Source: Actinomycetota bacterium (lineage in GTDB: Bacteria > Actinomycetota > UBA4738 > HRBIN12). From it: a DNA stretch of 39,146 nucleotides. A model generated the notes under the pieces. The model was not told where the DNA came from. It ran no database searches and saw only the letters and a list, made by a program, of their open reading frames with translations. Location: NCBI GenBank assembly GCA_036257875.1, contig DATAEV010000043.1, positions 1 to 39,146 of the forward strand, given 5' to 3'. The position numbers and the translations under genes were made by a program. Shown one piece after another: positions 901 to 14,661 of this stretch (positions are counted from its first letter, which is position 1; each line of letters opens with the position of its first letter).

Positions 901-914
901 TCGACGCGCCTCGT

Positions 915-1445: not shown

Positions 1446-1485
1446 ATATGCGGCAACCCGTACAGCTCGGAGATCCGCTGGTACG
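1446..1485. repeat. Copy 3 of the repeated motif (ATATGCGGCAACCCGTACAGCTCGGAGATCCGCTGGTACG)
   Basis: Shares CCCGTACAGCT and AGATCCGCTGG with copy 1. It lies 100 nt 3' of the PPOX gene. Confidence 0.6.
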
Positions 1486-1641
1486 TATCTGGGCTCGGCG
1501 CCCGGTCCCCCGGCCTCGATCTCGGTACTCCCGGACGCTCACGCCTTTCAGCCAGGCGGCGCGACAGGGGGTGGACCTCGCGCTTGCGGTCGCGCCGCGG
1601 ATCATCGCCGGATACGCAGCTAACGAGGCAACGGGTCGATC

Positions 1642-2103: not shown

Positions 2104-2169
2104 GGTCGACCTCCCGACGGCTAGCTCGGATCGCGTTGCATCATCGATCGTAGCCGCACCTTGATCAGC

Positions 2170-2258
2170 GAGGGCGGGTCTAAGCAGCCCTCGGGCTCGG
2201 GGGCGCGAACGACGGGTGAAACAAGTCCCTCTCCGTTCGCAAGCCCGACCTGCCCTCC
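2170..2258. repeat. ~89-nt hairpin-forming element, copy A (terminal inverted repeat GAGGGCGGGTC ... GACCTGCCCTC)
   Basis: Aligns with 9177-9258. Shared blocks are GAGGGCGGGTC, AAGCA, CCTCGGG, CGGGGG and GCGAACGA. The ends can pair over 10 bp with one G-U. Confidence 0.6.
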
Positions 2259-2302
2259 AGGCCTCGGCTCCCCCGGCCGGAATCTGGCTCTTCACGAAAT
2301 GG

Positions 2303-2343
2303 CCACGAAACGGCCAACGCCCGAGGGAGCGCCCCACCCAGCG
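2303..2343. repeat. 41-nt conserved post-stop element, copy 1 (CCACGAAACGGCCAACGCCCGAGGGAGCGCCCCACCCAGCG)
   Basis: About 35 of 41 nt match 3914-3953. It sits 13 nt 3' of the cyclase stop codon on the minus strand. Confidence 0.65.
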
Positions 2344-2355
2344 AACACGGTCGGT

Positions 2356-3711
2356 TCAGCTCATCACTCCGTAAAGACGCCAGAGGTCAGGGACGCCCTT
2401 CAGCTCATGTTCGCCTGCGGCCTCGAACGTGAAACCGGATCCGGCCACGAGATCCTTGACCGTCTGCGAGATCAGGATCTCGGATGGGCCAGCGATCGCG
2501 GCGATCCGAGCGCCGATCGTGACCGCGATCCCCCCGACCTTGTCGTTGATGCGCTCGCACTCGCCAGTGTGGATGCCCGCACGAATCTGGAGACCTAGAT
2601 CGCGAACGCGCTGGCTGATCTCTTGTGCACACCGGATCGCTCGCGCCGGTCCGTCGAAGGTTGCGAAGAAACCGTCACCCGAGTTGTCGTTCTCGATTCC
2701 GAGCCACCGGTCCAAAGCATCACGGACTATGGCGTGATGATGTTCGACCAGTTCCTTCCACGCGTGGTCACCGAGTGCCGCCTGACGCTCGGTCGACGCG
2801 ACGATGTCCGTGAACAGCACCGAGGAGAGGAACGCGTCGAGCTCTGCTCGAGGTGGGTCGATCCCGACGAATCGCCTGATGGCCTCGAGTCGAGGGCGAG
2901 CTTGCGCGCGATGCCCTCCGCTCCGCCACTCGCTCCAGGACGGCATGACCGCGAGCTCGGCCCTGGGCATGATGGAAGCAACGTACTCGGCCACACCTGG
3001 CTCCCCATCTGCCCCCCCATCCGTCAGCAGCATCGTCGGAACCTGAACCGTGGGTAGGACTGCTCGGATGTCCGTTTCGAACCAGATCCGTGCGAGTTCG
3101 ATCGCGACGTCAGGCGTGCAGGTGTTCCGGCTCGCCCTGCCCATCGCTTGGATCTCGTCGTCGGGAGGGGCGACGCCCGTTTCCTCCTCGAATTGCGCGG
3201 CCCACGCTCGTCCGTATTCGATGGTTCCCCAATGTTCGAGCGAGCGCAGCTCGCGCTCTCGCTGATCCGCGTTCTGGCCCCACGGGTAATCAACCGCCCA
3301 GGCAAAGCGTGGCTGAGGGCCGTCCCACACGAGCGCGCGGAGGCGGTCGGGGTCTGATGCCGCGAGAAGGATCGCGGGTGTCAGTCCTTCGTGAAAACTG
3401 CCGATCACGGGTCGTTCCGATCCCGCAGCGTCCAATACTTCTGCAAGGTCGGCCGAACGGGTCTCGAGGTTCGGCGGCGGTACGTTCCGGCTGGAGAGCC
3501 CGGTCGCCCGACGGTCATGCAAGATCACGCGGGCGAACGCGGCGAGGCCGCTCCACCAGGTCTTCCCGAAGGGGTCTTCCCAAGACGAGTCGATGGTGCC
3601 GTAGATATCGAACTGCCACGCGATGTCGATCGGGCCGTCGCCGAAGACCTGGTAGGCGATGTACGTCCCGTCCCTGGTCTTCACGTACGCGGGATCGGGG
3701 ATATCCATCAC
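2356..3711 (-). CDS. Alpha/beta-hydrolase domain fused to a class III adenylate/guanylate cyclase domain
   Basis: Track ORF, 451 aa. The C-terminal half has VLFTDIVASTERQAALGD...GDGFFATFDGPARAIRCA...IRAGIHTGECE...GIAVTIGARIAA, which are class III cyclase motifs. The N-terminal ~270 aa resemble an alpha/beta hydrolase fold (YIAYQVFGDGP..., ...HDRRATGLS). Confidence 0.85.
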   Translation of the reverse strand: MMDIPDPAYVKTRDGTYIAYQVFGDGPIDIAWQFDIYGTIDSSWEDPFGKTWWSGLAAFARVILHDRRATGLSSRNVPPPNLETRSADLAEVLDAAGSERPVIGSFHEGLTPAILLAASDPDRLRALVWDGPQPRFAWAVDYPWGQNADQRERELRSLEHWGTIEYGRAWAAQFEEETGVAPPDDEIQAMGRASRNTCTPDVAIELARIWFETDIRAVLPTVQVPTMLLTDGGADGEPGVAEYVASIMPRAELAVMPSWSEWRSGGHRAQARPRLEAIRRFVGIDPPRAELDAFLSSVLFTDIVASTERQAALGDHAWKELVEHHHAIVRDALDRWLGIENDNSGDGFFATFDGPARAIRCAQEISQRVRDLGLQIRAGIHTGECERINDKVGGIAVTIGARIAAIAGPSEILISQTVKDLVAGSGFTFEAAGEHELKGVPDLWRLYGVMS

Positions 3712-3913
3712 TCATCCCACCGTCTGGGCAGAGGTGCGACGGGTCGAGGGAGCCTTGAGCTCCGGCTCGCCATCGTATTCGAACCACGAGCAACCAGTGT
3801 CGAGGGCGTCGAGCATGGACCGAGCGTAAGACGAGACGTCTGGGGACGCCATCGGAAGATCACGAAGGACTTGGGACCCCGGCGAGGGGTCTGTGCGTCT
3901 TTCGGCCCGCTGT

Positions 3914-3953
3914 CCACGAAACGCCCACGCCCACGGGAGCGGCCCACCCAGCG
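3914..3953. repeat. Conserved post-stop element, copy 2
   Basis: CCACGAAACGCCCACGCCCACGGGAGCGGCCCACCCAGCG. It sits 4 nt 3' of the stop of the 3958..4323 gene on the minus strand. Confidence 0.65.
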
Positions 3954-3957
3954 TCTT

Positions 3958-4323
3958 CTACTCGAAGTAGCGAACCCTGCTCTCGTCACGCGCTCGAGGC
4001 TGCCGTAGCCACCGCAAGGTTCGGGGCTGCAGGAGTGTGCCGAGCAGTACGAGACCGGGCAACAGGAACAGGACCACGGCGATCAACTGTGCACCAGGTG
4101 CCGCGATATCCCCGGGGCTCGTCGCAGCCAGCACGCCGAGGACGATTCCGCCTGCGCCTGCGAGGAGGGCCAGAGCCCACGCCCAACGTTGACTGAAGAG
4201 GAGTCCAAGACCGATACCGATCAGCGCCGGGCCGAAGGCCCAGTCGATCCACGAGTACTCGGTTCCGCTGGAAGTCTCGACCGTCGCAAGCAACCCGAGC
4301 GCTCCCACACCCAGCGGTATCAA
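3958..4323 (-). CDS. Hypothetical small membrane protein (about 121 aa, 3-4 TM helices)
   Basis: Track ORF. Strongly hydrophobic (ALIGIGLGLLFSQRWAWALALLAGAGGIVLGVLAA, LIAVVLFLLPGLVLLGTLL). The start is a TTG at 4323, or GTG 15 nt downstream. It could be the 3' remnant of a longer decayed gene. Confidence 0.5.
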   Translation of the reverse strand: MIPLGVGALGLLATVETSSGTEYSWIDWAFGPALIGIGLGLLFSQRWAWALALLAGAGGIVLGVLAATSPGDIAAPGAQLIAVVLFLLPGLVLLGTLLQPRTLRWLRQPRARDESRVRYFE

Positions 4324-4526
4324 CCCAATGGCACGCGCCGGCGGACACCAACACCGGTCGGCTCCTCATGGTGGACGGTGACGGCGGATTCACACCGGTC
4401 GCTTGGCATCTGAACCAGCCGACCTCGCTCGAGTTCATCGGAAGGACCGCGTACGTCGTCACACTGGGAGGAGAGATCTGGTCGATCCGCCTGGGTGCCT
4501 GATCGCCGCATGACCGATCGTCAGAG

Positions 4527-4566
4527 CATCCCCGGAGCGGGCTCTCTGCCCGCGACCGGGGATGCT
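4527..4566. terminator. Strong nested stem-loop (GCATCCCCGG-A-GCGGGC-TCTCT-GCCCGC-GA-CCGGGGATGC)
   Basis: A perfect 10-bp outer stem plus a 6-bp inner stem, read directly from the sequence. There is no clear U-tract on either strand, so terminator function is inferred only. Confidence 0.4.
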
Positions 4567-4908
4567 TCCGAGCCGCCGTCAGCTGATCTTCATCTACAGC
4601 CACGCCCTTCTTTGAGTTCAAAGGACTGACGACGACCCACGCATAGCCGGTCGTCAACATGCGACGGCACCCATCGCGGAAACCGGGCGTGTGGGACGAG
4701 AGCGACAATCCGAGCCCAGCGAGACCGGCTGCGCGACCGGAACGAGGATGGGCACGGTTGTGGGCGAGAGCGCCACCGTCCCACCCAGCCACGACGCAGT
4801 TCGGGTCCATCGGCTCGCTGAACGTGAACGTGATCGGGCGGGCACGAGACGACTCCAGACGACATGGGACGACGGGGATGACCTCATCTCGTGCTTGGCG
4901 CGAGCAAC

Positions 4909-4962
4909 CTTAGGATCCGGTGGCCGAGAGGCCGCGGGAGTTCGAGTCTCCCCTCTCGCACC
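4909..4962 (+). pseudogene. tRNA-Leu(UAG)-like 3' fragment, from anticodon loop to acceptor end, lacking a matching 5' half
   Basis: Components in order: CTTAGGA loop, TCCGG, a long variable arm (GGCC-GAGA-GGCC), T-arm GGGAG-TTCGAGT-CTCCC, 3' acceptor CTCTCGC, then A73 and CC. The upstream sequence has no GCGAGAG acceptor partner, D-arm or 5' anticodon stem. Confidence 0.5.
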
Positions 4963-5200
4963 GCTCTGACTAGTGGATCTAGGCCGCTTACGTAGGATGA
5001 TCCCGTTCCGGCCCAGTCGCCAACATCCGCAGCGGACCGCTCGCGGGTGTCAACGAGCAGTGTGGCTGCCTTCCTGGGCCGGGGCGAGGAGCCGGGCGAG
5101 CTCGGTGCGCGAACGGTTGGCTTCCAACGTTGACCGGCGTCAGCTCAAACGAGGTGTAACGGATCAGGCGGAGCCATTTCGTTACGCGTCAGGCGAACCC

Positions 5201-6439
5201 TCAGTGGGGCACCGAGGACTCTTGTTTGGCTCCGACTAATCGGCTGGCCCGGTGCAGTCGGATGGGGTGCGGCAGGCCCTTCAACTCAACGAGTCCGATG
5301 TCCACGAATCGTATCGCCGGGTTCTGTGACAATCGGACGACGCTGTCGCTGACCAAGACCTGCCCAGGCCCACCATGAGAGGCAATCCTGGCGGCGGTGT
5401 TGACCGTCCTACCGAAGTAGTCACCGTCCTGGAAGATCACCGGGCCAGCATCTATGCCCGTGTGAGGCGGCGGAAGGCCAGCGGCCGGAACGCGCTCGGC
5501 GAGCTCCAGCGCCGAGATGACTGCCCCATCGGGCTCGGCGAAATAGAGCATCACGCCATCCCCCAACCACTTGACGGGCCGGCCTCTTTGGTCGTTCGCA
5601 CTGCGCTGGACTAGTCCCCCGAGGACGGCCGCCATCTCGGCGGCGGCCTCATCCCCTCGCTCCTCGGTCAGCTGCGTGTAGCCGGAGAGGTCGAGGAAGC
5701 ACATGGCCGGCAGTTCAGCAACCGTGTGATGCAGCCCCGCCTTCTCCAGGGTCGCCTCTACCGCTTCGACCACGTTGGCCATCCAGGTGTGCTCCGACTG
5801 GCCGTGGTACATCGATGCGAGCGCTCGATCGATGTACGGGATACCCGCTGCGACGGCTTCGTTAGCCGCCTGCAGAACCTGAGCCTCGCTTAGCCCCGAT
5901 CGAAGGAGCGGGACCTCGATCTGGCCGCGGTAAAAGGTCGCCGATGCTTCGGTGATGCGGCGCATGCTCTCGCCCCACACCCGGACCAACCGCTCGATCG
6001 CCACAGGGTCCGCCCCGGCCTCGAGGGCTATCTTCACCACGGGGACCAGATCGAGCGCTTCCTCGTGGACAGGATCCTCCGGCTCGGGACGAGCGAACCC
6101 CATCGACTCCCGAATGACCTGCAGGAGCTCGAGGCCCAGTCCGGTCTCAGCGCTGAGCTCCCGATAGGTCTTCCCGATGAACCCGCCGTACCACTCCCAG
6201 CTCGCGAGATCCAAGAACCCGAAGGAGAGATCCCCCTTTCGGACGGCTGTGCCCATCCCCTCGAGCGGCAGACCTCCCTCCTCGAGACCCCGAACCAAGC
6301 GCACTCTCCGAACATCACCTCCGGTGAACAGCGAGCCGGTCTTCGGTGCAGCGAGGATGCCGAGCTCGAGCAGCCGATCCACGTACCCAACATGGACCCC
6401 CGCTCGCTCGGCCAGTGCTTCGCGCGTGAGTCCGCCCAC
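5201..6439 (-). CDS. MerR-like HTH domain / helical linker / class III adenylate-guanylate cyclase domain protein
   Basis: Track ORF, 412 aa, GTG start. The N-terminus LTREALAERAGVHVGYVDRLLELGIL is HTH-like. The C-terminus has MCFLDLSGYTQLTEERGDE...KWLGDGVMLYFAEP...HTGIDAGPVIFQDGDYFGRTVNTAARI, which are class III cyclase motifs. Confidence 0.85.
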   Translation of the reverse strand: MGGLTREALAERAGVHVGYVDRLLELGILAAPKTGSLFTGGDVRRVRLVRGLEEGGLPLEGMGTAVRKGDLSFGFLDLASWEWYGGFIGKTYRELSAETGLGLELLQVIRESMGFARPEPEDPVHEEALDLVPVVKIALEAGADPVAIERLVRVWGESMRRITEASATFYRGQIEVPLLRSGLSEAQVLQAANEAVAAGIPYIDRALASMYHGQSEHTWMANVVEAVEATLEKAGLHHTVAELPAMCFLDLSGYTQLTEERGDEAAAEMAAVLGGLVQRSANDQRGRPVKWLGDGVMLYFAEPDGAVISALELAERVPAAGLPPPHTGIDAGPVIFQDGDYFGRTVNTAARIASHGGPGQVLVSDSVVRLSQNPAIRFVDIGLVELKGLPHPIRLHRASRLVGAKQESSVPH

Positions 6440-6475
6440 GACCCAGGCATGGTATCGGCTGCCTTAGGGCGACGG

Positions 6476-8011
6476 TCAGCCCGACGGGGCACCCGGCAGA
6501 CCCGCCAATCGTTGGAGCCCGTCATAGGCAGCGTACTTGTAAGCCTCGCTCCGAGTCGGAATGTTGAAGGTCGCGTGGATGAAACGGTCGATCACTCCGC
6601 CCTCGTGCATCACGGCCTGACCCTGGTGGATGAGCTCCGACGCGATATCGCCCAGGATGTGCACGCCGAGCAACACTCGGTCCTCGCGTCGGAAGACTAA
6701 CTTCACCAGTCCGTCGGTCCCACCGTCTATCACCGCCTTGATGTTGCGTGAGAACCAACCTCGGCCGACCTCGTACGCGATGCCTTGCCTCGTCGCGGCC
6801 TCCTCCGTCAGGCCGACCATGGCCACCTCGGGGATGGAGTAGATGCCGTACGGCGGGAGGGGATCAACCGTTTCTTTGAACGGGATGCCGAAGGCGTGGC
6901 AGGCGGCGACCCTTCCCTGCTCCATCGAGACCGAGGCCAGGGCAGGGGGGCCGATGACGTCGCCAGCCGCGTAAATCCCCTTCGCGGTCGTTCGGAACTC
7001 CTCGTCCACGACGATCCGGCCTCGGGCATCGATCTGCACGCTCACCTCCTCGAGGCCCAGGCCTTCGGTATTTCCTGCCCGGCCCGCCGCGAACAGGACT
7101 TTCTCGGGCCGGATGACCTCCCCGCTCTCGAGAGTGACCCGCAGCTCACCGTCCGCCCGCCGAACCGCACCGACCCCGGACCCCAGGACGAGGCGCACCC
7201 CCATCCCGGAGAAGGTCGCTCCGAGGAGCCGGGAGATCTCACCGTCCACGAACGGAAGGAGCCGCTCACCGGAATCGAGCAGCACCACCTCGGTCCCGAG
7301 CGAGGTGAAGATCGAAGCGTACTCACACCCGACCGGTCCCCCTCCGACGACCACCATGCTGCGGGGGATCCTGTCGATGCCGAGAATTCGTTCCGAGTCA
7401 TACACGTCGGGGTCGTCGAACGGAACGTCGGGAGTGTGAAAGGGCCGAGATCCGGTGGCGACCAGAACGATGTCAGCCTGTAGCGTCCTCGGTGCGGCAT
7501 CCCTGTCCGGGGTTACAACGACGGTTCGATTCGGCCCGAAGCTACCGGTTCCCCGCACCATCTCGATCTGGTGACGCGCTATGTTCTCCTTGACCTGGCC
7601 AACCATGGCGGCCTGGACGTGCGCAGTTCGATCCATCAGCCTGTCGAGCGTCGCGTCCGGATCGAGATGAATGGACAGGCCGTAGACCTCGCGTCGGCGG
7701 TACCCCGTTAGATACAGCGCGGTCTCCCTCAACGTCTTCGTCGGGACCCCTGCGCTGCTGACCAGGGCTCCCCCTGGGGCCGCCCGCCGCTCCACGATGG
7801 CCACCCGCTTGCCGAAGAACGCGGCCTGGGCGGCGGCTTTCTCGCCCGCGGGCCCAGCACCAATCACCACCATGTCGAAGCTTGCCACTGCGGCAGCGCT
7901 TGGCGTTGTCTCGATGTGGGGAGACGAGCTTGCGGTGGCCTGAGATTCCGGTCCGGGCCGCGGGACGGCGGGCACGCGGACCTCCTCCTCCGATCCATCG
8001 GTGAATTCCAT
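6476..8011 (-). CDS. sthA: Soluble pyridine nucleotide transhydrogenase-like flavoprotein (FAD/NAD(P) disulfide-reductase fold)
   Basis: Has FDMVVIGAGPAGEKAA (FAD GxGxxG), GGALVSSAGVPTKTLRETALYLTG (no redox-active CxxxxC, as in SthA) and VVGGGPVGCEYASIF (NAD site). Track ORF 6476..8152 is trimmed to ATG 8011, which has a GGGAG SD. The N-terminal ~45 aa extension is uncertain. Confidence 0.75.
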   Translation of the reverse strand: MEFTDGSEEEVRVPAVPRPGPESQATASSSPHIETTPSAAAVASFDMVVIGAGPAGEKAAAQAAFFGKRVAIVERRAAPGGALVSSAGVPTKTLRETALYLTGYRRREVYGLSIHLDPDATLDRLMDRTAHVQAAMVGQVKENIARHQIEMVRGTGSFGPNRTVVVTPDRDAAPRTLQADIVLVATGSRPFHTPDVPFDDPDVYDSERILGIDRIPRSMVVVGGGPVGCEYASIFTSLGTEVVLLDSGERLLPFVDGEISRLLGATFSGMGVRLVLGSGVGAVRRADGELRVTLESGEVIRPEKVLFAAGRAGNTEGLGLEEVSVQIDARGRIVVDEEFRTTAKGIYAAGDVIGPPALASVSMEQGRVAACHAFGIPFKETVDPLPPYGIYSIPEVAMVGLTEEAATRQGIAYEVGRGWFSRNIKAVIDGGTDGLVKLVFRREDRVLLGVHILGDIASELIHQGQAVMHEGGVIDRFIHATFNIPTRSEAYKYAAYDGLQRLAGLPGAPSG

Positions 8012-8300
8012 TTCGGAAACTCCCACGACGGGGCACACCCCCTCCTTGGATCTTCTTCTGCCGGCAAGATTCTCTCCCACGGCCGCTTTCGCCCTCGTCG
8101 CTACCCAGGGAGCGAACGACCGGCTCTTGCAAGCTCTATGAACTGGGCCCATCGGTCCCGGACCGAGTCACCCGATTGGGGGAAACAGAATTCACCCGTT
8201 GCCGCACGTGCAGAAATCGCCCAGTACTCCGATGCAGGTAGTAGACGCATGCATTGAGTGGGGACCGGTGGGCGGGCCCGTCTTGGCGTCGAGAGGGGGC

Positions 8301-9092
8301 ATGATGGTTGGCGGAGCAGACGACGCTCGAGACGGGGTAGGTGTTCGTTCAACCCTGAGCGATCAAGCGCTCGGGGGAGAAGTCGTACCGCTGAAGCTCG
8401 AGCCGGCGGGTATCGGCCATAGCCCTCAGCAGATCCTTGAAGAACGAGAGAACGCGCAGCTGCGGGCCCTCGTGGCGGAGCAGAGGTTGGCTGAGATCGA
8501 GGCGGCGCGTGCGGCGGCCCAGGATCAGCTTCAGAACTCCCCCACCAACGAGGCGGAGCTATCAGCCACCCGAGAGAAGCTCCGCGCTCGCGCACAGGTT
8601 CGTGCCGCCGAAGAGAGGGAGGAGGCGGTCGAGGCCGAGCTGGTGATCACGCGGGAAGAGCTCCGCTGCGTGTCTGCCGAGGCCCGGAGGGCGAACGCGA
8701 GATTCGTCGAGCTACAGGCGGAGTTCCGAACGACGCTCGAGTCTACGAGTGACCAACTGCGCGAATCTACTGCAACCACCGAGGCCGAGCTCTTAACGAT
8801 ACGGGGGGAGCTCGCCGAACGGATCGACGAGGCAAGACGCGCCCAGGCTGAGATCGCCGAGCTCCGAGCCGAGCTGAACGCCCGCGAACGCGCGGGACCC
8901 GAGCTGGTCCAGTCGATCCTGACGGCTGTCTTTGGTGCCCGGTCCAGCGTCGATGAGGTGCCGAACCGCATAAAGGACGCTCTGGCTCCGACCGCCGACG
9001 CCGTCGCGAGACTGGGCGACTGCCTCGACCAGCTAACCCGATCGCCAGACTTGGCACGCCGCGAGCCCACGCTGGGTGTGGAGGAGGCATAG
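8301..9092 (+). CDS. Hypothetical Ala/Glu/Arg-rich coiled-coil protein
   Basis: Track ORF 8199..9092 trimmed to ATG 8301, which follows GAGAGGGGG. It has long heptad-like stretches (AELSATREKLRARAQVRAAEEREEAVEAEL..., EARRAQAEIAELRAELNARE). I recognise no catalytic motif. Confidence 0.6.
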   Translation: MMVGGADDARDGVGVRSTLSDQALGGEVVPLKLEPAGIGHSPQQILEERENAQLRALVAEQRLAEIEAARAAAQDQLQNSPTNEAELSATREKLRARAQVRAAEEREEAVEAELVITREELRCVSAEARRANARFVELQAEFRTTLESTSDQLRESTATTEAELLTIRGELAERIDEARRAQAEIAELRAELNARERAGPELVQSILTAVFGARSSVDEVPNRIKDALAPTADAVARLGDCLDQLTRSPDLARREPTLGVEEA

Positions 9093-9176
9093 CGTTCGAG
9101 GAAGCGAACGACGGGCGGCGACGAACACTCCTTGCTCGCCCGGCCGCCCTTCCGGTCAGCGCAGCCGTGCTTGGTT

Positions 9177-9258
9177 GAGGGCGGGTCGAAGCACCCTCGG
9201 GGCCCGGGGGGCGGCGAACGATCGGCGTATCCCTTCTCCGACCCCTGACCCGCCCGTC
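9177..9258. repeat. Hairpin-forming element, copy B (GAGGGCGGGTC ... GACCCGCCCGTC)
   Basis: Aligns with 2170-2258; the ends form a perfect 9-bp stem. A partial extra copy of the internal GCGAACGACGGG block lies at 9104-9115, 12 nt identical to 2205-2216. Confidence 0.6.
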
Positions 9259-9298
9259 TGTTCGGTTCCACCTCAGGGATCTCGGGTCGCCGAGGACA

Positions 9299-9550
9299 TC
9301 ATCGGGTCGTCGAAACGGTGCGTGAGCTTTCTGCATCACGCGTCCCGTCGGGGGTGTGTTCGGGTCGCCGCTCCACCCTTGGCAGTCGCCTCCGCCGAGG
9401 CCCATCGCCAGCTTCGAGCGAAACGCTCCACCCTTCGGCCTCAAGCCTCGTCCTGATCTGGGAGGCCACTTCCGGGTGAACGTCCCACGTCAGCAGCGTT
9501 TCACCTCTCATCGCTCGCAACTCCACGAGACGGTTCATCACCTGACTCAC
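9299..9550 (-). CDS. Hypothetical small protein (83 aa; the C-terminal half is low-complexity)
   Basis: Track ORF with GTG start at 9550 or ATG at 9538. The N-terminal MNRLVELRAMRGETLLTWDVHPEVASQIRTRLEAEGWSVSLE looks protein-like; the rest is Arg/Pro-rich. Confidence 0.3.
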   Translation of the reverse strand: MSQVMNRLVELRAMRGETLLTWDVHPEVASQIRTRLEAEGWSVSLEAGDGPRRRRLPRVERRPEHTPDGTRDAESSRTVSTTR

Positions 9551-9658
9551 CTACAGGGTGTCGGCACAACGGGGGGGCACCTGAAGGCGGACTCGCGAAT
9601 GCTGAGACTTTGCTCTAAGAGATGGACGATCTAGCCTCTTCCTTACACCAAGGATGGC

Positions 9659-9847
9659 TCATTCTCCTTTCAGCCGACGGCGCTTCGCCTTCGCGTCCTG
9701 CCGGCCGAGTTCCGTGACGCGATACACGGGCGCGAGCGTCCCATCGCGCCGAGGCCGGAATTCGCCGGTCGGCTCGATCAGGCCGTCGGCCACGAGCTCG
9801 GCGATCTCATAGCGGATCCCGCTCAGACTCGGATCGACCTGGTTCAC
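9659..9847 (-). CDS. Small winged-helix-like DNA-binding protein (62 aa)
   Basis: GTG start after a GGAGGTGG SD. IAELVADGLIEPTGEFRPRRDGTLAPVYRVTELG resembles the recognition helix plus wing of wHTH regulators, followed by a basic tail KAKRRRLKGE. Confidence 0.5.
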   Translation of the reverse strand: MNQVDPSLSGIRYEIAELVADGLIEPTGEFRPRRDGTLAPVYRVTELGRQDAKAKRRRLKGE

Positions 9848-9911
9848 GGGGCCACCTCCAACGAGCTCGCCGCACGGTCGCGATCAAGTGCCGGGTTCTG
9901 CCTCACGAGTG

Positions 9912-10241
9912 TCATCGACGCTCCTTCCGCTGCTTGGCCAGTGCTCCTTGTCGGCCGGTGCGGGTGGCGTGGCATCGCCGGCAGACGGCCCGCAGGTTCT
10001 CAAGCTCATCAGTGCCTCCAGCCTCCGGCTGGACGATGTGATCGACCTGGGAGGCTCGCCCGAGGCAGCCGGGGTACCGCAGCTGGCAGACGTAGCCGTC
10101 CCGCTTGAGCACTCGCGCTCGGCGCTCCGGCCAGTCCCCCTTGTAGGCGTAGGCGTTGGCCGGGGGCTTCTTGGTCCAGGCCTTCCCGCCATGCCGCGTG
10201 CATCCCACAACCCCGCAGTGGGGACAGGCCCGGCGGATCAT
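9912..10241 (-). CDS. HNH endonuclease (109 aa)
   Basis: N-terminal CPHCG...C..H Zn knuckle. The core VLKRDGYVCQLRYPGCLGRASQVDHIVQPEAGGTDELENLRAVCRRCH has the D-H...N...H signature. The ATG overlaps the upstream stop (ATGA 10238-10241). Confidence 0.85.
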   Translation of the reverse strand: MIRRACPHCGVVGCTRHGGKAWTKKPPANAYAYKGDWPERRARVLKRDGYVCQLRYPGCLGRASQVDHIVQPEAGGTDELENLRAVCRRCHATRTGRQGALAKQRKERR

Positions 10242-10555
10242 CGGGGCAACTCGTAGCCGACCACCGGATGCGGGAGGAACCGGACCCGGACCTCGGCGAT
10301 CCGCGTGGTCCCCTCTACCTGCTCGAACCGCGCCTCGACCGGGTAGACCCCGTCGCCGAGACCCGTCCCGACGAGCACCGCGACGCCGACGCCACCCTCG
10401 TTCGTGACGACTACGTAGTTCATCGAGCCGGACTCGCCCAGGTCGTAGCGGGAGACGTCGTCCGCGTTCATAGGATCAACGAGCGCCAGCAGCCCCGTGT
10501 CGACGGGTACGTCAGCGATTCGCTGCCACTCGCCGCTCTGCGGTGATCCGGTCAT
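10238..10555 (-). CDS. Hypothetical protein, DUF4241-like (105 aa)
   Basis: VDTGLLALVDP...VLVGTGLGDGVYPVEARF...IAEVRVRF resembles, from memory, the DUF4241 C-terminal pattern. It has ATGA overlaps at both ends. Confidence 0.55.
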   Translation of the reverse strand: MTGSPQSGEWQRIADVPVDTGLLALVDPMNADDVSRYDLGESGSMNYVVVTNEGGVGVAVLVGTGLGDGVYPVEARFEQVEGTTRIAEVRVRFLPHPVVGYELPR

Positions 10556-11001
10556 CTCGGCTCCTTCCTGGCACTCATCGGTTCCTCCTCATCCGTTCCG
10601 GTCATTTCGGCCTCCTTCTGGTTTCCCCCGGCGCGCTGTTTTTCGCGAAGCCTGGCAGGTGGCAGTGCCGTGCGCGGGCCGGGAAAAGCAGGTTCGGCGA
10701 AGAAATCTGTCGGACGCGCGCCAGGTGGCACTGAGCGGGAGTGGATGGGAAGAAACGGGATTCTCCACGCGTGCTCCAGGTCGTGGGTCAGGGTGACAAG
10801 CTGCACGGCTCGGACATGACTGCATCGACCGAGCGCAGGACATCCGCAGGACCACCCGTCCGGATCCCACGTCACGACGTAAACCTCGGCCTCATCGCCT
10901 CGGACATGGGCCACGATCAGGTCGTCACCGATACGCCGGATGGTGACCCTGCCTTCTGACACGAGCCGGCGGGCCTTGGTCTGGGCGTCCTCACGGGTCA
11001 T
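10552..11001 (-). CDS. SWIM zinc-finger protein (149 aa, disordered C-terminal half)
   Basis: VTWDPDGWSCGCPALGRCSHVRAV fits the CxCx(n)CxH SWIM signature. There is a GAGGAGG SD upstream of ATG 11001. Confidence 0.75.
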   Translation of the reverse strand: MTREDAQTKARRLVSEGRVTIRRIGDDLIVAHVRGDEAEVYVVTWDPDGWSCGCPALGRCSHVRAVQLVTLTHDLEHAWRIPFLPIHSRSVPPGARPTDFFAEPAFPGPRTALPPARLREKQRAGGNQKEAEMTGTDEEEPMSARKEPR

Positions 11002-11030
11002 AGTTCCTCCTCAGTTACGAAAAGTCTGAT

Positions 11031-11062
11031 AAGGGGGAAGAGGGGGTATGTATAAGAGGGGG
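11031..11062. repeat. Iteron-like direct repeats: AAGGGGG, AAGAGGGGG, TATGTAT, AAGAGGGGG
   Basis: Three G5 repeats around an AT-rich core, in the 77-nt gap directly 3' of the replication-type ATPase gene. An inverted copy, TTCCCCCT, lies at 11088-11095. Confidence 0.5.
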
Positions 11063-11078
11063 TCCCGACTTCTCGTGT

Positions 11079-12356
11079 TCACGCGGTTCCCCCTATGGCC
11101 AGCGTCTTTATGGTGTTCATGCCGTCCGTGGTGAGGGTCCAGCGCAGATCTTGGCCGGTGCCTGAACGCTGCACGAGGCCGATCGCGGTGAGGTCCTCGG
11201 CCACAAGACGCAGCGTCGAGATCGGCAGGTTCGTGGCGTTGGCGAGGTCCGCGGTTGAGGCCGGATCCTCCCCGACGAGCTGCCCGAGGACACCGACACG
11301 AACCTGCGGCATGGAGTCCCGGCCGACCCGCGCAACGACCTGGAGGGCACCCGGCTCGTCGTAGCCGATCGCCATGAGTGCGTTCGCCAGCGCCGCCACG
11401 GCCTTGGCGAACCTCGCTGGCACCTCTAGCTCGGGGACCACGAGGATCTCTCTCGTGTAGCCGTCGCGCTCGATGCCGGTCCGGCCTTGGGTGGCGTAGC
11501 GGGACACCGCCACGATCTCGGCGGTGGCTTCAGGCGAGAGGCTCCCACCGGCGGGAGGCACGTGCGCGAGGAACGCACGCATAGCCTCCCGGAGCTCGGC
11601 CCGCATCTCGTGCTCGTGGCCCCTCGTGGCCAGCGCCCTGGCGGTGAGCGTGTCCCGATCCTCGGGAGGCAGGCGCAGCATCAGGAACCGCTGCCCCAGC
11701 ACGGCGAGCACCTGGTGGTGGCGGTCGATCACCGGGGTGACGCCGGCCAGGAACCCGAGACGCCCAGTCCAGGACACCGACTGCCCATTACCGAAGTCCT
11801 TGGAGTACTCGCCGTCGTAGATCTCCCTCAGTGCCCCGAGGATCTCTGAGCGTGCGTCGCGGTGCAGGCTCAGCACGGTGGTGAAGTCCTTGAGCACGAG
11901 GAACGACAGCCCTTTGTCCTCAAGCCGGTTGAGCAGGCTGGACGACCGCCCCTTGAACCCGGACACGAACGTCTGGCCGGTGAGCGACGACAGCTTGTAG
12001 ACCTCGGGACAGTCGGTGAGGGACTGCAGGATCTCGGTCTTGCCCGAGGACGGCGGCGAGACGAACTGCAACCACAGCGGATCTCCGCCAGCCCGATGGG
12101 CCACGACGGCCGCCGCCGCAACGTCGATCGCCACCAGATCGGGCAGGTACAGATAGCGCTGAAACTGCTCGTGCAGCTCCTGGAGCGATGGCGAACCTCC
12201 TGCAACCGTGGCCGCAGGTTCGGTCGAGGGTTCGCGCGTGACGTCCAGACCCTCAAGCTTCGGCCGCCCGTTGGTTGAGGGTTCGGAAGTTACTTCCAGA
12301 CCCTCAAGTGCCAACCACTCCTGCTCCTCCTCCCACGTCTTGAAGAAGGGCATCAC
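11079..12356 (-). CDS. P-loop NTPase of the plasmid/phage replication (DUF3987 / primase-associated helicase-like) type with a C-terminal winged-helix region
   Basis: Walker A is VSPPSSGKTEIL; Walker B-like is LSFLVLKDFTTVL. HRDARSEILGALREIYDGEYSKDFGNG...WTGRLGFLAGVTPVIDRHH matches a family I recall from actinobacterial plasmids and integrated elements. The N-terminus has a duplicated LEGL(E/D)VT(S/R)EPST. The start is GTG 12356 or ATG 12353. Confidence 0.7.
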   Translation of the reverse strand: MMPFFKTWEEEQEWLALEGLEVTSEPSTNGRPKLEGLDVTREPSTEPAATVAGGSPSLQELHEQFQRYLYLPDLVAIDVAAAAVVAHRAGGDPLWLQFVSPPSSGKTEILQSLTDCPEVYKLSSLTGQTFVSGFKGRSSSLLNRLEDKGLSFLVLKDFTTVLSLHRDARSEILGALREIYDGEYSKDFGNGQSVSWTGRLGFLAGVTPVIDRHHQVLAVLGQRFLMLRLPPEDRDTLTARALATRGHEHEMRAELREAMRAFLAHVPPAGGSLSPEATAEIVAVSRYATQGRTGIERDGYTREILVVPELEVPARFAKAVAALANALMAIGYDEPGALQVVARVGRDSMPQVRVGVLGQLVGEDPASTADLANATNLPISTLRLVAEDLTAIGLVQRSGTGQDLRWTLTTDGMNTIKTLAIGGTA

Positions 12357-12538
12357 GTGATCCGCCCTTGGTCGCGCCAGCGGAGCTCACGGAGGAACCA
12401 GGACTCGTGTCGGTCCAACCACCGGATCAGATCGTCCATCCGGCGCATCGACCGTTCGTATTGCTCTCGTTCGGCGTGTGAGCTATCCTGGTCCCAGCCG
12501 AGGGCGGTCTCGCGGGTTTCCCGCGGGGCCGCTTTCAT
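12353..12538 (-). CDS. Hypothetical small protein (61 aa)
   Basis: C-terminal part of track ORF 12353..12859, starting at an ATG that overlaps the upstream stop (ATGA 12535-12538). MKAAPRETRETALGWDQDSSHAEREQYERSMRRMDDLIRWLDRHESWFLRELRW is helical and charged. Confidence 0.5.
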   Translation of the reverse strand: MKAAPRETRETALGWDQDSSHAEREQYERSMRRMDDLIRWLDRHESWFLRELRWRDQGRIT

Positions 12539-12807
12539 GTCTGGACCTTCTTCCGGCGAGCTTGCGCGGACTTCAACGCGAGCGAGAGGAAGTGGGGCTT
12601 CTTGGCGTGGCCTGCGCGGCGAGCCCGCTCGGCCGGATCCAAGAGACCATCGGGGTCTACCTGCTTCTCCCAGTACCCATCGGCACCGGGCGAAGCAGCG
12701 CGAGCGTTCTTCGTCAGCTGGCGGTCGTCGTACTTCGGGTTCGCGTGTAGCGAGTGGGCACCGAGCGTCGAGATGATCGATCGCTCTTGGGGGGACTTCG
12801 AGGGCAT
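12535..12807 (-). CDS. Conserved hypothetical protein of actinobacterial integrated elements (90 aa)
   Basis: Track ORF. LGAHSLHANPKYDDRQLTKNARAASPGADGYWEKQVDPDGLLDPAERARRAGHAKKPHFLSLALKSAQARR resembles small proteins I recall beside integrases in actinobacterial elements. Confidence 0.6.
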   Translation of the reverse strand: MPSKSPQERSIISTLGAHSLHANPKYDDRQLTKNARAASPGADGYWEKQVDPDGLLDPAERARRAGHAKKPHFLSLALKSAQARRKKVQT

Positions 12808-12922
12808 TGCCGAGCCTCCTGGCTCGGCGGTGCCCTAGGCCGCACGATCTTCCCGGCACAGCCGGAGGAGGTTCGGACTTTTATGCCTGCGTCATCCTAC
12901 AACGCTGTGCTGTGCCGTGCGG

Positions 12923-13183
12923 TCAAGGATCGCCCATCCGACGCACGCTCCTGGTCATGATCACGGGTGGAGAGGGGTTGAGCGCCAGCCGCAGTAGGTC
13001 CTCGTCGTGAACCTGCATCGCGCCGTGCTTGGGGCAGTCGTAGAACCGCTCCTGCCATCGCAACGGGTCGAAGGTGACGATGCCCTTGGCGAAGTTCAGG
13101 TCCTCCCGCTCGATCTGGGGCTCCAGCCTGCGACCGCACGGCTTCCCGCCGTTGAGCACTCCGCATCGAACGGTGATCTTCAC
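12923..13183 (-). CDS. Cys-rich (zinc-ribbon-like) small protein, 86 aa, translationally coupled to the integrase
   Basis: Track ORF 12923..13327 trimmed to the GTG that overlaps the integrase stop (GTGA 13180-13183). [17 protein letters not shown]...(45 aa)...YDCPKHG gives a C..C...C..H arrangement. Confidence 0.5.
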
Positions 13184-14106
13184 AGCCGGTCCCCCGGGGA
13201 GAGCCGACGGTGCGCGTCGCGGGCTCGCTCGGTCGCCGTGGCGGCGGCGTAGCGCTGCAGCATCGTGCGGCTGTTCCACCCGGCGAGCCGCATGAGGTCG
13301 GTCTCTTCGCCGCCCGCCTGGAGCCACGCGCTCGCGAAGGAGTGTCGGAGCCGGTGGGGCGTCACCGCGCCGATGCCGGCCTGGATCCCGCGCCGCTCAA
13401 GCATCTGCCGGATGCCGCTCGTCGTCATAGGCCCGCGTGCTCCGAGCCAGAACTCGGGCCGATCGGCTTCCGGATGCGTTCGCCGCGACCGCAGGTACCG
13501 GCCGAGCGCCTTCGCGGTTTTCGCGCCGAACGGGACCTCGCGGAGCTTCCGGCCCTTGCCGAGGACACGTATGCCACGGCGCTCGGCGATGTCGACGTCG
13601 TCAATCATCAGGCCCGTGCACTCAGCGAGTCGGATCCCGGTGTCGTACAGGAGCGCGACGAGCGCGGCGTCACGCCGGTCCGCGAACGTTCGACCCTCGC
13701 ATGCGCCCAGCAGCGCACGGATGTCTTCGGAACGGAGCACGGGGGGCGGCTGCACGATCACCTTCGGCGGACGGACGTGGCGCATCGGGTTGGAAGCCTC
13801 GGCGACCTCGCCCTCCTCGACGAGCCAGCGGAAGATCTGCTTGATCCCGTCGTAGTACGCCTTCGCCGACGCGGCCGCGTATCCACCCTCCCCGAGCATC
13901 CACGCGAAGAACGCCTCCAGGTGCTCGCGAGCGATCGCATCGGCCGCGGTCGGCATGCCCTGCCGGCGACAGAACGCCTCGAACATCGTCACGCCGCGGA
14001 CGTAAAGCTCCACGGTCCTCGGCGACCGGTTCGTCGCTTCCAGGGAGATCCGCCACTCAGGGAGCAGCTCGACGATGTCGTTCGGTGCCCTGGTCGCCGT
14101 ATCCAT
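13180..14106 (-). CDS. Tyrosine recombinase / phage-type integrase
   Basis: Has an SAM-like N-domain ([19 protein letters not shown]). Catalytic residues are in [12 protein letters not shown] (R), HRLRHSF (HxxR) and [13 protein letters not shown] (Y). I prefer ATG 14106 over the TTG at 14142 used by the track. Confidence 0.9.
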
Positions 14107-14170
14107 GACCGGGATGTTATCCGCTGTGCTACCGCTGTGCAACTGCCAGATACGGCGTTTGTCCTGCTAG

Positions 14171-14243
14171 TGGACCCAGGGGGATTCGAACCCCCGACCT
14201 CATGGCTGCCAGCCATGCGCTCTACCAGCTGAGCTATGGGCCC
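14171..14243 (-). tRNA. tRNA-Ala (anticodon GGC)
   Basis: The reverse complement GGGCCCATAGCTCAGCTGGTAGAGCGCATGGCTGGCAGCCATGAGGTCGGGGGTTCGAATCCCCCTGGGTCCA folds as a cloverleaf. It has the G3:U70 alanine identity pair, anticodon loop CTGGCAG and T-loop TTCGAAT. CCA is not encoded. Confidence 0.9.
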
Positions 14244-14256
14244 GAAGCCGGGAAGT

Positions 14257-14661
14257 CTACCCGGCGGACGCGGCCTCGGATCCGTCTTCCCAGCCCACGC
14301 GTGGCGCGTCGCTCCACAGCCGCTCGAGGTCGTAGTACGAGCGTTCCTCCGTTCCGAACACATGAACGACGACGTCGACGTAGTCGAGAAGCCACCACCC
14401 CGCGCCGGCTTCACCTTCCCGTCGGACCGGGCGGACCCCCAGCCGTTCTCGGACCCGATCCTCGATGCTCTCGATCACCGTCTTGACCTGCCGTTGGGTG
14501 CCCGCGGAGCAGATCACGAAGAAGTCGGTGATCACGATGAGCTCGTGGACGTCCAAGATGACGATGTCGTCTGCCTGCTTGTCCGACGACGCTCGGGCTG
14601 CCGCGACGGCGACGTCCCTGCTCGGGGGTAGCACGTCGCTCCCCTGCCCTGCCATCGTCAT
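14257..14661 (-). CDS. rsfS: Ribosome silencing factor RsfS (iojap-like)
   Basis: DIVILDVHELIVITDFFVICSAGTQRQVKTVIESIEDRV...WWLLDYVDVVVHVFGTEERSYYDLERLW is the RsfS pattern. ATGA overlap with the upstream gene. Confidence 0.9.
   Translation of the reverse strand: MTMAGQGSDVLPPSRDVAVAAARASSDKQADDIVILDVHELIVITDFFVICSAGTQRQVKTVIESIEDRVRERLGVRPVRREGEAGAGWWLLDYVDVVVHVFGTEERSYYDLERLWSDAPRVGWEDGSEAASAG

Follow-up and report, generated by a model that had tools for sequence, protein, structure and literature searches.

A conserved pair of genes for an acidic DUF4241-like protein and a terminase-type HNH endonuclease on a small, possibly phage-satellite-like island of an actinobacterium

Introduction

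Descriptions of phage satellites are good for Proteobacteria and Firmicutes but scarce for Actinomycetota, and the known satellite families hijack packaging by means of TerS, Rpp or capsid-remodelling proteins. The minimal Vibrio PICMI satellites presumably have a layout (integrase, Rep and a short hijack module) comparable to that of the island described below. In Mycobacterium tuberculosis, the small islands phiRv1 and phiRv2 carry an integrase, a primase-type Rep and terminase, protease and capsid genes. A terminase-associated zinc-ribbon class of HNH endonucleases, which works with terminase in cos cutting, has been described (PMC3592412), and such enzymes of cos phages are the subject of Kala et al. 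(2014), as cited in PMC10085698. HNH is furthermore a core gene of cf-PICIs and an occasional gene of PICIs and P4-like satellites (PMC10085698).

The island under study, located in a window of 39,146 nt (the whole stretch of DNA analysed; contig DATAEV010000043.1 of an Actinomycetota bacterium), encodes an HNH endonuclease next to a DUF4241-like protein, here designated MID as the middle one of three ORFs. This HNH protein resembles the HK97 gp74-type terminase-associated enzymes (PMC3592412) in size (~100–130 aa), in its His-Asn-His residues, in its CxxC-type zinc site and in the possession of an extra N-terminal knuckle. Unlike the genes of those enzymes, its gene lies on a chromosomal island of ~5 kb without terminase, portal or capsid genes, and, unlike phage HNH genes, the island HNH gene is always coupled to that of the acidic DUF4241-like partner, which is missing at the corresponding phage position. 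With PICIs, cf-PICIs and P4-like satellites (PMC10085698), the island shares an integrase, regulators/Xis, a primase/Rep of its own and a short putative hijack module, as well as its small size and the lack of tail and lysis genes. It differs from these in showing no homology to their marker genes, in its uncultured actinobacterial host and in a helper dependence that is only predicted; its hijack module would, moreover, consist of HNH and MID only, without TerS, Rpp, Sid/Cpm or capsid genes. Many islands that carry the MID and HNH genes resemble AICEs (e.g. pMEA300 with RepAM; PMC3218068) in using a module of tyrosine integrase, HTH_17 Xis and RepAM (DUF3631). They are distinguished from AICEs by their size of ~5 kb and by the MID-HNH cassette, which stands where transfer genes would be located. 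AICE Tra (FtsK/SpoIIIE) or Spd genes were found neither among the nine ORFs of the window island (Pfam) nor in loci L002–L005 (precomputed Pfam labels), and a literature search returned no account of minimal actinobacterial satellites that bear an HNH gene.

Results and Discussion

Organization of the island

The island region extends from 9.3 to 14.2 kb of the window (~5 kb) and comprises a tyrosine integrase, small genes, Rep and the cassette, beside a tRNA-Ala gene. The following features were assigned:

14170..14243, minus strand: tRNA-Ala(GGC), presumed integration target (ARAGORN, Rfam)
13180..14142, minus strand: tyrosine integrase (Pfam Phage_integrase, 1e-28; phrog_1, 3.5e-44)
12535..12807, minus strand: conserved 90-aa island protein (P90), no assigned function, with 45–72% identity in L006, L041, L042 and L073
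12353..12541, minus strand: small gene (~62 aa) overlapping the start of Rep, weakly similar to a 57-aa gene preceding the RepAM gene of related islands
11079..12356, minus strand: Rep (P425), P-loop ATPase with a C-terminal winged helix (weak wHTH matches)
11002..11078, minus strand: conserved intergenic region after Rep with CCCCCTCT repeats, GACTTTTCGTAACTG and an RBS, preceding a variable cargo/packaging slot
10777..11001, minus strand: SWIM-like zinc-finger domain (codons 1–75 of a 149-aa ORF)
10552..10776, minus strand: C-terminal tail of the SWIM ORF, a read-through candidate; unconserved, with flat codon-position GC, and holding the cis element
~10630..10695, minus strand: conserved non-coding element upstream of MID, composed of the T-run GCTTTTCCCGG, ~10 nt and then ACTGCCACCTGCCAGGCTTCGCGAAAAAC
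10238..10555, minus strand: MID, acidic (net charge -8) DUF4241-like protein (phrog_5209) of 105 aa, with an ATGA overlap into HNH
9912..10241, minus strand: HNH endonuclease with a zinc knuckle, predicted cos/terminase-associated class, 109 aa, net charge +15
9659..9847, minus strand: 62-aa ORF downstream of HNH with winged-helix-like sequence and coding-like GC3; no family match

The integrase gene, which like that of Rep is intact, lies 28 nt from tRNA-Ala. Exact and fuzzy searches of the window revealed no further occurrence of the tRNA-Ala 3' end that could represent an att repeat, and the tRNA end likewise lacks a second copy in L002-type loci. Rep has 496 homologues, many of which are fused to PrimPol/PriCT-1 or Toprim/zf-CHC2 primase domains, and shows no homology to RepAM; the ~62-aa gene matches the 57-aa gene preceding RepAM (BLASTP E = 4e-6), with a similar match in L070/L071. 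The region at 11002–11078, which the initial annotation had taken for a putative origin, is a conserved intergenic region common to related islands, with nothing to mark it as an origin, and aligns with the equivalent regions of L073 (ahead of HNH-TerS-TerL) and L070. The slot downstream of HNH is variable and is occupied by unrelated 89-aa or 103-aa genes in other loci. Conjugation (FtsK/Tra), tail and lysis genes were not detected among the ORFs of the window island using Pfam and PHROG profiles.

The conserved unit of the cassette

The three minus-strand ORFs at 10552–11001 (149 aa), 10238–10555 (105 aa) and 9912–10241 (109 aa), together with ATGA overlaps at both the SWIM/MID and MID/HNH junctions, were confirmed. 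The conserved unit consists of a ~60-nt non-coding element, MID and the zinc-knuckle HNH; the three-gene 'triad' as initially described is not conserved. Of the 44 related loci that could be assessed, 43 have MID and HNH adjacent (HNH within 120 nt); because the loci were mostly retrieved via MID, their constant company is partly a sampling effect as regards the islands, though not as regards the pairing of MID with HNH. The 4-nt overlap between the two genes is retained in ~30 of 38 loci, including those in which the gene order is swapped to HNH followed by MID (L046–48). Across the family, net charges range from -8 to -13 for MID and from +15 to +18 for HNH, and these opposite charges fit a direct complex. 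Both genes are under purifying selection (dN/dS across loci of ~0.34 for MID, ~0.36 for HNH and ~0.35 for both), and both are intact with coding-like GC3 in the window, while a frameshifted MID or HNH was observed in several related loci (L001, L011, L016 and L049). Replication modules of three unrelated kinds (P425, RepAM/DUF3631 and PrimPol+AAA_25) and a number of different integrases accompany the pair and its cis element, which thus behave as a portable module.

The assignment of MID to DUF4241 (PF14025) proposed initially holds as a distant relationship and not as a family match, since the window copy reaches 21.9 bits, where the threshold is 27, and covers profile positions 29–67 of 189. 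Among representatives of the MID superfamily, 32 of 80 match DUF4241 at E ≤ 1e-3 (best 1.1e-11), whereas phrog_5209 is matched by all 29 members tested (best 9.9e-11) and by the window protein at 6e-6 over profile positions 2–95 of 103. The motifs VDsG..l.DP and G.GDG.YPVEar are common to MID and DUF4241/phrog_5209. MID (145 homologues) is ~100 aa in length and matches only ~40 of the 189 DUF4241 positions below the gathering score; it is therefore, as judged from these profiles, a remote or partial relative of DUF4241, a domain that together with phrog_5209 is spread over at least 507 sequence clusters. An AF2 model of MID is all-beta with low confidence (pLDDT 63); a Foldseek search against the PDB returned noise only, and an HMM search of PDB sequences gave no match. 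In a literature search, DUF4241 was not mentioned, and the string 'PF14025' occurred only in unrelated malaria and Giardia contexts.

In complete actinophages, MID-like phrog_5209 proteins are encoded in early/DNA-metabolism regions and away from terminase, so that MID itself is no recognized packaging protein. Neighbours of these phage genes include early genes such as that for an Ocr-like anti-restriction protein. MID was not found in viral contigs (profile patterns, IMG/VR), neither SWIM nor MID had a tblastn match in 50,697 phage genomes, and a search among GTDB species representatives led to a single MAG. Two small proteins encoded directly upstream of phage HNH genes, prophiGD102-1 gp80 and JasmineDragon gp69, were considered as MID analogues and rejected, as hhalign revealed no similarity.

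Profile searches identified the last ORF as a true HNH endonuclease, in agreement with the initial annotation (Pfam HNH, 36.3 bits, cut-off 21.4; phrog_333, 2e-25), with the N-terminal knuckle CPHCGVVGCTRH (CxxCx4CxxH) at residues 6–17, in place of which its relatives carry Cx4C...CxxC. The catalytic residues His68, Asn82 and His91 and the zinc site Cx6C/CxxC (C52, C59, C87 and C90) are invariant in an alignment of 16 relatives. The window protein exhibits 35–47% identity to HNHs of actinophages that are encoded as gene 1 or the last gene and flank cos and TerS/TerL. Phage relatives at cos ends are likewise the first or last gene; in an evenly sampled set of 60 phage homologues, 52 are located no more than 3.6 kb from the end of a genome, and some adjoin TerS/TerL directly upstream. 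On the basis of this homology and gene position, the protein is assigned to the cos/terminase-associated zinc-ribbon class. Close relatives were not found in INPHARED or IMG/VR, and Pfam and PHROG profiles detected no terminase gene near HNH (8.2–14.2 kb of the window).

The element preceding MID follows the family consensus AGAGTGCCACyCAGCCGGCyCCGCGAGAAAAACCCC. Searching with the 34-nt core consensus while tolerating ≤8 mismatches located it in 35 related loci, in each case on the coding strand and directly upstream of MID. The window copy is more divergent (~10 mismatches) and was recognized by its CGCGAAAAA core and by alignment. The element is tandemly duplicated in L014–16 and L038, and in 8 of 26 distinct sequences it is accompanied by an inverted second copy, generating a ~130-nt hairpin (z = -7 in L049); short variants, including that of the window, have a single arm only. 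A general reading as a structured RNA was rejected, as the 3' arm is missing from the variants of the window and L002, which yield z > 0. No match was obtained in Rfam, INPHARED or IMG/VR, and 16-mers of the element gave chance matches in IMG/VR, none of which extended.

Sister islands

Sister islands were sampled via the Rep gene, independently of MID, and three kinds of island were obtained. The island of L073 is related to that of the window in its integrase, P90 and Rep (65, 51 and 79% identity, respectively), and following the homologous intergenic region its slot harbours HNH, a P27-like TerS and TerL (phrog_9, 2e-55). In L072, the post-Rep slot contains an HK97-type major capsid gene (phrog_10, 8e-27), and in L070 and L071 it contains another HNH. 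Likened by description only, phiRv1 and phiRv2 presumably resemble the islands of L072 and L073; by the same descriptive comparison, the window island is more reduced than either prophage-like element, with only HNH and MID. Within the window island, the packaging-type HNH gene is the sole packaging-related gene, and neither terminase nor capsid genes are present. The related element in L006 carries defence cargo (HEPN_AbiV); a circularity test of this locus revealed no terminal repeat, and its integrase gene is split over both contig ends.

Proposed role of the cassette and competing explanations

Our preferred interpretation, to which we assign an evenly balanced probability, is that the island is phage-satellite-like (PICI-like in logic) and that the MID-HNH cassette is its packaging-hijack module. 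Packaging hijack by all three ORFs had been one of two functions suggested initially; comparative evidence, namely the class of the HNH and the HNH-TerS-TerL or capsid genes in the corresponding slot of sister islands, backs it best among the options for the MID-HNH pair and does not extend it to the trio. The island would be a small, integrative and self-replicating element beside a tRNA-Ala gene of an uncultured high-GC actinobacterium, with a phage-exploitation module in the post-Rep slot made up of the cis element followed by the coupled MID and HNH genes. Upon replication of a cos-type helper phage, the island would excise and replicate, and the basic HNH would act with the helper terminase to cut and package island DNA. 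Acidic MID may bind HNH, either restraining the nuclease until its activity is required or serving as an adaptor to the island recognition site or to the helper machinery, while the element upstream of MID may represent that recognition site or an operator/leader that times expression. Counting against this interpretation, a helper phage was not found in INPHARED or IMG/VR, and neither a cos site nor att repeats were identified, so that mobility of this copy is only putative. The absence of terminase and capsid genes from the window island, the lack of matches for the cis element, for close HNH relatives and for MID in the viral collections searched, the position of MID-like phage genes away from terminase and the low-confidence model of MID weigh in the same direction. 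If this interpretation is correct, the island would exemplify a new and very economical form of piracy, in which the only phage-directed genes are a packaging-type HNH and an acidic partner behind a conserved site; a role would be assigned to the widespread DUF4241/phrog_5209 domain, and the spread of small Int-Xis-RepAM islands without an AICE transfer gene would be explained.

A bolder and more tentative proposal is that the element, MID and HNH together constitute a self-sufficient, portable minimal piracy module, in which the element would be the recognition site, MID the acidic adaptor or regulator and HNH the nickase. In that case, any small integrase-Rep island of soil Actinomycetota could become packageable via the terminase of a cos helper, and the islands would form an unrecognized family of ~5-kb actinobacterial satellites and provide a first function for the DUF4241/phrog_5209 fold.

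The main rival to the packaging-hijack interpretation is that MID and HNH form a nuclease-inhibitor pair, similar to toxin-antitoxin or colicin DNase-immunity systems, which would act in addiction or as an abortive-infection/interference effector, with the palindromic element as an autoregulatory operator. We regard this as unlikely, though worth serious consideration, as the two genes are small, share a 4-nt overlap and keep their coupling in either order; their products are strongly acidic (MID) and strongly basic (HNH); and the upstream element often forms inverted or tandem repeats, as operators do. The location of phage MID-like proteins among early genes (Ocr-like anti-restriction) would also suit an inhibitor, and the defence cargo of related elements, e.g. 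HEPN_AbiV in L006, points in the same direction. Small co-translated genes, complementary charge and an operator-like repeat are, however, permissive and not diagnostic for a toxin-antitoxin pair. The detectable relatives of HNH are packaging-type phage HNHs and not toxin HNHs, sister islands hold terminase or capsid genes in the same slot, and the element is single-armed in short variants such as that of the window, all of which argue against this explanation. The proposal of a defence cassette in the initial annotation likewise found no support in PADLOC: in PADLOC-DB v2, HNH gave only weak generic domain matches (DpdF, ZorE and REases), none of them system-specific, and MID gave no match, while the PADLOC and NCBIfam matches of HNH were to the generic HNH domain only and far below cut-offs. 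If the pair were nonetheless of this kind, it would represent a new HNH-inhibitor addiction or defence pair; under either this or the packaging-hijack interpretation, what is conserved is a two-gene cassette and not a three-gene system.

It is improbable that the island represents the decaying remains of a prophage or satellite in which HNH and its neighbour are left-over phage DNA without a present function. The missing att repeat, the seemingly lost stop codon of the SWIM ORF and the frameshifted MID or HNH genes of L001, L011, L016 and L049 are compatible with decay, but the window copies of MID and HNH are intact with coding-like GC3, dN/dS is ~0.35 across loci, integrase and Rep are intact, and the cassette recurs on different backbones. 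Marginally less probable still is a phage-independent role in which HNH, under regulation by MID, serves the island's own DNA metabolism (e.g. replication nicking, resolution of concatemers or recombination). The cassette follows Rep, with no sigma-70-like promoter or terminator detected by a scan between the two, and a palindromic element beside the gene of a nickase might act as a nicking site or an ori; however, the presence of the cassette with three unrelated Rep systems makes a tie to one replication mechanism unlikely, and homology points to packaging HNHs.

The SWIM-like ORF

That SWIM, MID and HNH form one three-subunit complex of fixed stoichiometry, as the initial annotation had considered probable, is very improbable, because the ATGA overlaps at both window junctions and the recurrence of the trio in L048 are outweighed by the absence of SWIM from all 45 close MID-HNH loci, its presence without MID or HNH in the related elements L006 and L007, and a SWIM/MID overlap that rests on an unconserved, non-coding-like tail. 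SWIM joins the pair in just 1 of 64 other loci (L048), in a different order and with a ~400-nt gap; the families hence essentially do not co-occur elsewhere as a SWIM-MID-HNH trio, whereas the MID-HNH pair clearly does. Judged by this distribution, the SWIM gene is an occasional, variable neighbour after Rep and lies outside the cassette.

The tail of ~70 aa, which had been described as disordered sequence, is not conserved in homologues (14 sequences, mostly 81–84 aa, of which only approximately the first 75 residues are conserved). Its GC content at codon positions 1, 2 and 3 is flat (0.67/0.59/0.64, compared with ~0.72/0.45/0.85 for real genes of this region), and it overlies the conserved non-coding element (here at ~10634–10689). 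The tail is therefore probably a read-through across the intergenic region, with the stop codon of the ORF seemingly lost, and the apparent coupling of SWIM to MID is probably accidental.

With respect to the domain itself, the CxCx5CxH motif reported initially is present, while the Pfam SWIM profile (PF04434) scores 16.2 bits (E = 0.0075), below its gathering cut-off of 19.6. No PDB match was obtained for the SWIM structure. The AF2 model (pLDDT 83) comprises a helix, four strands and a helix, and the motif C52-x-C54-x5-C60-x-H62, which is invariant in 12 sequences, is followed in this model by a helix at residues 61–70.

Conservation of the MID-HNH pair

In a ~67 % GC actinobacterial chromosome segment, three chained ORFs described in the initial annotation were recovered, with ATGA at both junctions:

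10552-11001, minus strand: SWIM ORF, 149 aa (SWIM-like zinc-finger domain in its N-terminal part)
10238-10555, minus strand: MID, 105 aa (acidic, DUF4241-like)
9912-10241, minus strand: HNH, 109 aa (zinc-knuckle nuclease)

Sixty-six loci were fetched and compared. HNH was located within 120 nt of MID in 43 of the 44 assessable loci with a MID identity of at least 50 %, and the 4-nt overlap between the MID stop and HNH start was present in ~30 of 38 loci; a 4-nt overlap also joins the two genes in L046-L048, where HNH comes before MID. The dN/dS values were ~0.34 for MID and ~0.36 for HNH, and the net charges were -8 to -13 (acidic) and +15 to +18 (basic), respectively. No HNH adjoins the more distant MID-like proteins of other and lower-GC organisms. 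SWIM was missing from all 45 close MID loci, accompanied the cassette only in L048 (~400 nt away from HNH-MID) and was present in L006 and L007, from which MID and HNH are absent. As judged from sequence comparison, the conserved unit is the MID-HNH pair and not the trio, and the three-protein SWIM-MID-HNH complex proposed for the coupled ORFs is accordingly given a smaller weight.

Features of the SWIM, MID and HNH proteins

The CxCx5CxH signature of a SWIM-like finger is present in the first ORF, but its Pfam SWIM score (16.2 bits) is below the cut-off of 19.6. Only 14 homologues were identified among 5.8 billion proteins, most of them 81-84 aa in length and alignable over residues 1-75 only; the additional 70 residues in the window, previously read as a disordered tail, are not conserved. 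The codon-position GC content (GC1/2/3) of this tail is flat (0.67/0.59/0.64), compared with 0.72/0.49/0.75 for the SWIM domain and 0.74/0.44/0.86 for MID, and the tail overlies a conserved non-coding element. These observations argue against a genuine protein tail and indicate that the SWIM/MID overlap most likely represents accidental read-through. For the N-terminal domain, a confident model (pLDDT 83) was obtained in which four strands are flanked by one helix on either side, and this model had no PDB match. In L046 (7422-7634) and L017 (~700-970), an extra small zinc-ribbon protein (endonuclease VII/Lar-like ribbon; phrog_1035 at 3e-11 in L046) is encoded just upstream of the cassette, in the position filled by SWIM in the window.

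The similarity of MID to DUF4241 was recovered, but below threshold (21.9 bits, cut-off 27) and over 39 of 189 profile positions; among the MID superfamily clusters tested, 32 of 80 matched DUF4241. Phrog_5209 was matched over the full length of MID and by all 29 members tested (best 9.9e-11). When 1.84 billion representatives were searched with a profile, 507 clusters were obtained, most of them made up of stand-alone proteins 85-135 aa long. The ~145 close homologues were derived nearly exclusively from soil and rhizosphere metagenomes, with one match (an Actinomycetota MAG) among 185,579 GTDB species representatives and none in IMG/VR. A MID-like (phrog_5209) gene was present in 105 complete actinophage genomes and, in the two that were inspected, is surrounded by early/DNA-metabolism genes and not beside terminase:

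L074, 3992-4291: Streptomyces phage RedBear gp60, neighbouring genes for a dNMP kinase, a DnaE-like polymerase and an Ocr-like protein
L075, 3962-4300: Mycobacterium phage LilhomieP gp129, away from terminase

Since the AF2 model of MID is all-beta, of low confidence and without structural neighbours, the family (DUF4241/phrog_5209) goes unmentioned in the searchable literature and the phage copies are located away from terminase, we infer a role for MID only from its strict coupling to HNH and from charge complementarity.

The last ORF was confirmed as an HNH nuclease (Pfam HNH 36.3 bits, cut-off 21.4; phrog_333 at 2e-25) with an extra N-terminal CxxCx4CxxH knuckle. No variation was seen among 16 diverse relatives in the catalytic residues (His68, Asn82 and His91) or in the Cx6C/CxxC zinc site. 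Homologues were detected in 1,127 phage genomes; 60 records were drawn at even intervals from the match ranking, and in 52 of them the gene was located within 3.6 kb of a genome end, as gene 1-5 or last. In prophiGD102-1, for example, TerS, TerL and portal come immediately after HNH, and in DroogsArmy HNH is gene 1, followed by TerS. The zinc-ribbon HNH class is known to adjoin cos and terminase genes (PMC3592412), and the window HNH is of this class. HNH is also a core gene of cf-PICIs and an occasional one in PICI and P4-like satellites (PMC10085698).

A conserved cis element upstream of MID

A non-coding element was identified directly upstream of MID in 35 related loci, consisting of a T-run such as CCGTTTTTCCCG, ~10 nt, AGAGTGCCACyCAGCCGGCyCCGCGAGAAAAACCCC, a variable stretch, an RBS and ATG:

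10630-10695, minus strand: window copy, inside the SWIM tail (T-run at 10689, core 10666-10634)
L002 7890-7990; L049 6700-6850; L014 4500-4700: copies in other loci

The window copy is more divergent than those of other loci. The element is doubled in tandem in L014-16 and L038, while in 8 of 26 distinct sequences an inverted copy produces a ~130-nt hairpin (L049: -84.7 kcal/mol, z = -7.0). Only the left arm is present in the variants of the window and L002, which do not fold (z > 0). A primary sequence that is conserved while copy number and orientation vary is more suggestive of a DNA site recognised by a protein, such as an operator, a packaging site or a nicking site, than of a structured RNA. 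The element corresponded to no Rfam family, and matches in phage genomes and IMG/VR did not exceed chance 16-mers.

Island organization and replication backbones

The island lies beside a tRNA gene:

14170-14243: tRNA-Ala, next to RsfS and Obg
13180-14142: integrase, abutting tRNA-Ala
6476-8152: pyridine-nucleotide disulphide oxidoreductase gene, probably chromosomal

Downstream of the integrase, a conserved 90-aa gene is followed by one of ~62 aa, which overlaps the start of Rep, and by the gene for P425, a 425-aa P-loop and winged-helix Rep protein. PrimPol/PriCT-1 or Toprim primase domains are frequent fusion partners in the P425 family (496 matches). After Rep come a conserved intergenic region (11002-11078), SWIM and the cis element, then MID and HNH, and lastly two small ORFs. 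The intergenic region, previously considered a putative ori, contains CCCCCTCT repeats and GACTTTTCGTAACTG before the RBS, and is common to islands L073 and L070; no evidence for an origin role was obtained, and it may be a promoter or operator of the post-Rep operon. Pfam and phrog searches of the window island revealed no FtsK-type Tra, tail, lysis or terminase genes. When 14100-14260 was compared with 1-14050, the 3' end of tRNA-Ala had no second copy as a direct repeat (attR) anywhere in the window, and none was found for the tRNA-adjacent islands of L002-L004, implying either a very short core or fixed islands.

In other MID-HNH loci, RepAM/DUF3631 is preceded, in this order, by an integrase, an HTH protein of 171 aa, an Xis of the HTH_17 type and a 57-aa protein, and is followed by a 58-aa gene and the cis element; after MID and HNH comes a gene of 89 or 103 aa. 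RepAM is a pMEA300-type AICE replication initiator (PMC3218068); it is common to AICEs and these islands, whereas the Tra gene is absent from the latter. PrimPol and an AAA_25 helicase replace RepAM in L046-48, and in L041 RepAM occurs together with an integrase and a 90-aa gene of the window type. P425 and RepAM have no detectable homology, and the pairing of the cassette with P425, RepAM or PrimPol plus AAA_25 indicates that it moves between unrelated backbones.

Sister islands and the proposed packaging function

Loci were also sampled through the Rep gene, which avoids the bias of MID-based selection. Sister island L073 (identity to the window: integrase 65 %, 90-aa protein 51 %, Rep 79 %) carries, after the homologous intergenic region (GACTTTTCGTAACTG.GAGGAGG), genes for a 136-aa HNH and for two terminases, one small and P27-like, the other large (phrog_9 at 2.4e-55):

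L073, 3591-6052: HNH, small terminase and large terminase, in the slot of window SWIM-MID-HNH
L072, 11210-12379: HK97-type major capsid gene (phrog_10 at 8e-27; Pfam Phage_capsid)

A different HNH (phrog_589) is encoded in L070 and L071. The contents of L070-L073 identify the SWIM/MID/HNH slot as a swappable position for phage packaging/capsid genes, which is a signature of phage satellites. The L073 terminases are followed by no portal gene, and an S49/SDH_protease gene is present on the opposite strand (7328-8287). L072 adjoins secG, and its capsid gene, apparently the sole structural gene, recalls the capsid homologue Ccm of cos-type SaPIs.

The conserved pairing and coupling, the HNH class, the exchange with terminase/capsid genes and the lack of conjugation or defence signatures point, with roughly even confidence, to a satellite-like island in which the MID-HNH cassette and cis element form a packaging-hijack module. 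HNH would cooperate with a helper terminase, MID would serve as a regulator or adaptor and the cis element would be a recognition site or operator. The initial annotation was partly confirmed in its observations and partly supported in its interpretation, as the hijack reading applies to the pair but not to the triad. The main rival, considered rather unlikely, is a nuclease-inhibitor addiction or defence pair; it fits the opposite charges and overlap of MID and HNH, the repeat-like upstream element and the early-gene setting of phage MID-like proteins. A decaying remnant and a function in processing the DNA of the island itself were each given a smaller weight. Satellites with HNH are of a known kind; the acidic partner, cis element and minimal Actinomycetota architecture of the favoured hijack module are not described in the searchable literature.

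Additional features of the islands

On the 9.9-kb contig L006 (1-9940), which lacks MID and HNH, the 90-aa gene and SWIM are accompanied by genes for an ECF-type sigma factor and HEPN_AbiV. Its window-type integrase is split over the two contig ends, so that the element on L006 may be circular or excised; the ends showed no overlap with each other.

The 5' end of the window Rep gene contains a 36-nt direct repeat (12222-12308; 83 % identity, 51-nt spacing), which gives the protein two copies of the peptide LEGLxVTxEPST within its N-terminus, a part that is not conserved. A 297-aa coiled-coil ORF (8199-9092, plus strand), with internal 34-nt repeats at 8549, 8630 and 8780 and weak SMC/JetC/LmuB-like matches, is located at the expected far island boundary and may represent either island cargo or a chromosomal gene. 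Adenylate/guanylate-cyclase genes with similar N-terminal sequences (IDIPDPAY.KT.DGTYIAYQ) occur near islands in the window (2356-3711 and 5201-6439), L005 (8903-10252) and L046 (9969-10178, fragment), suggestive of related host genomes or neighbourhoods.
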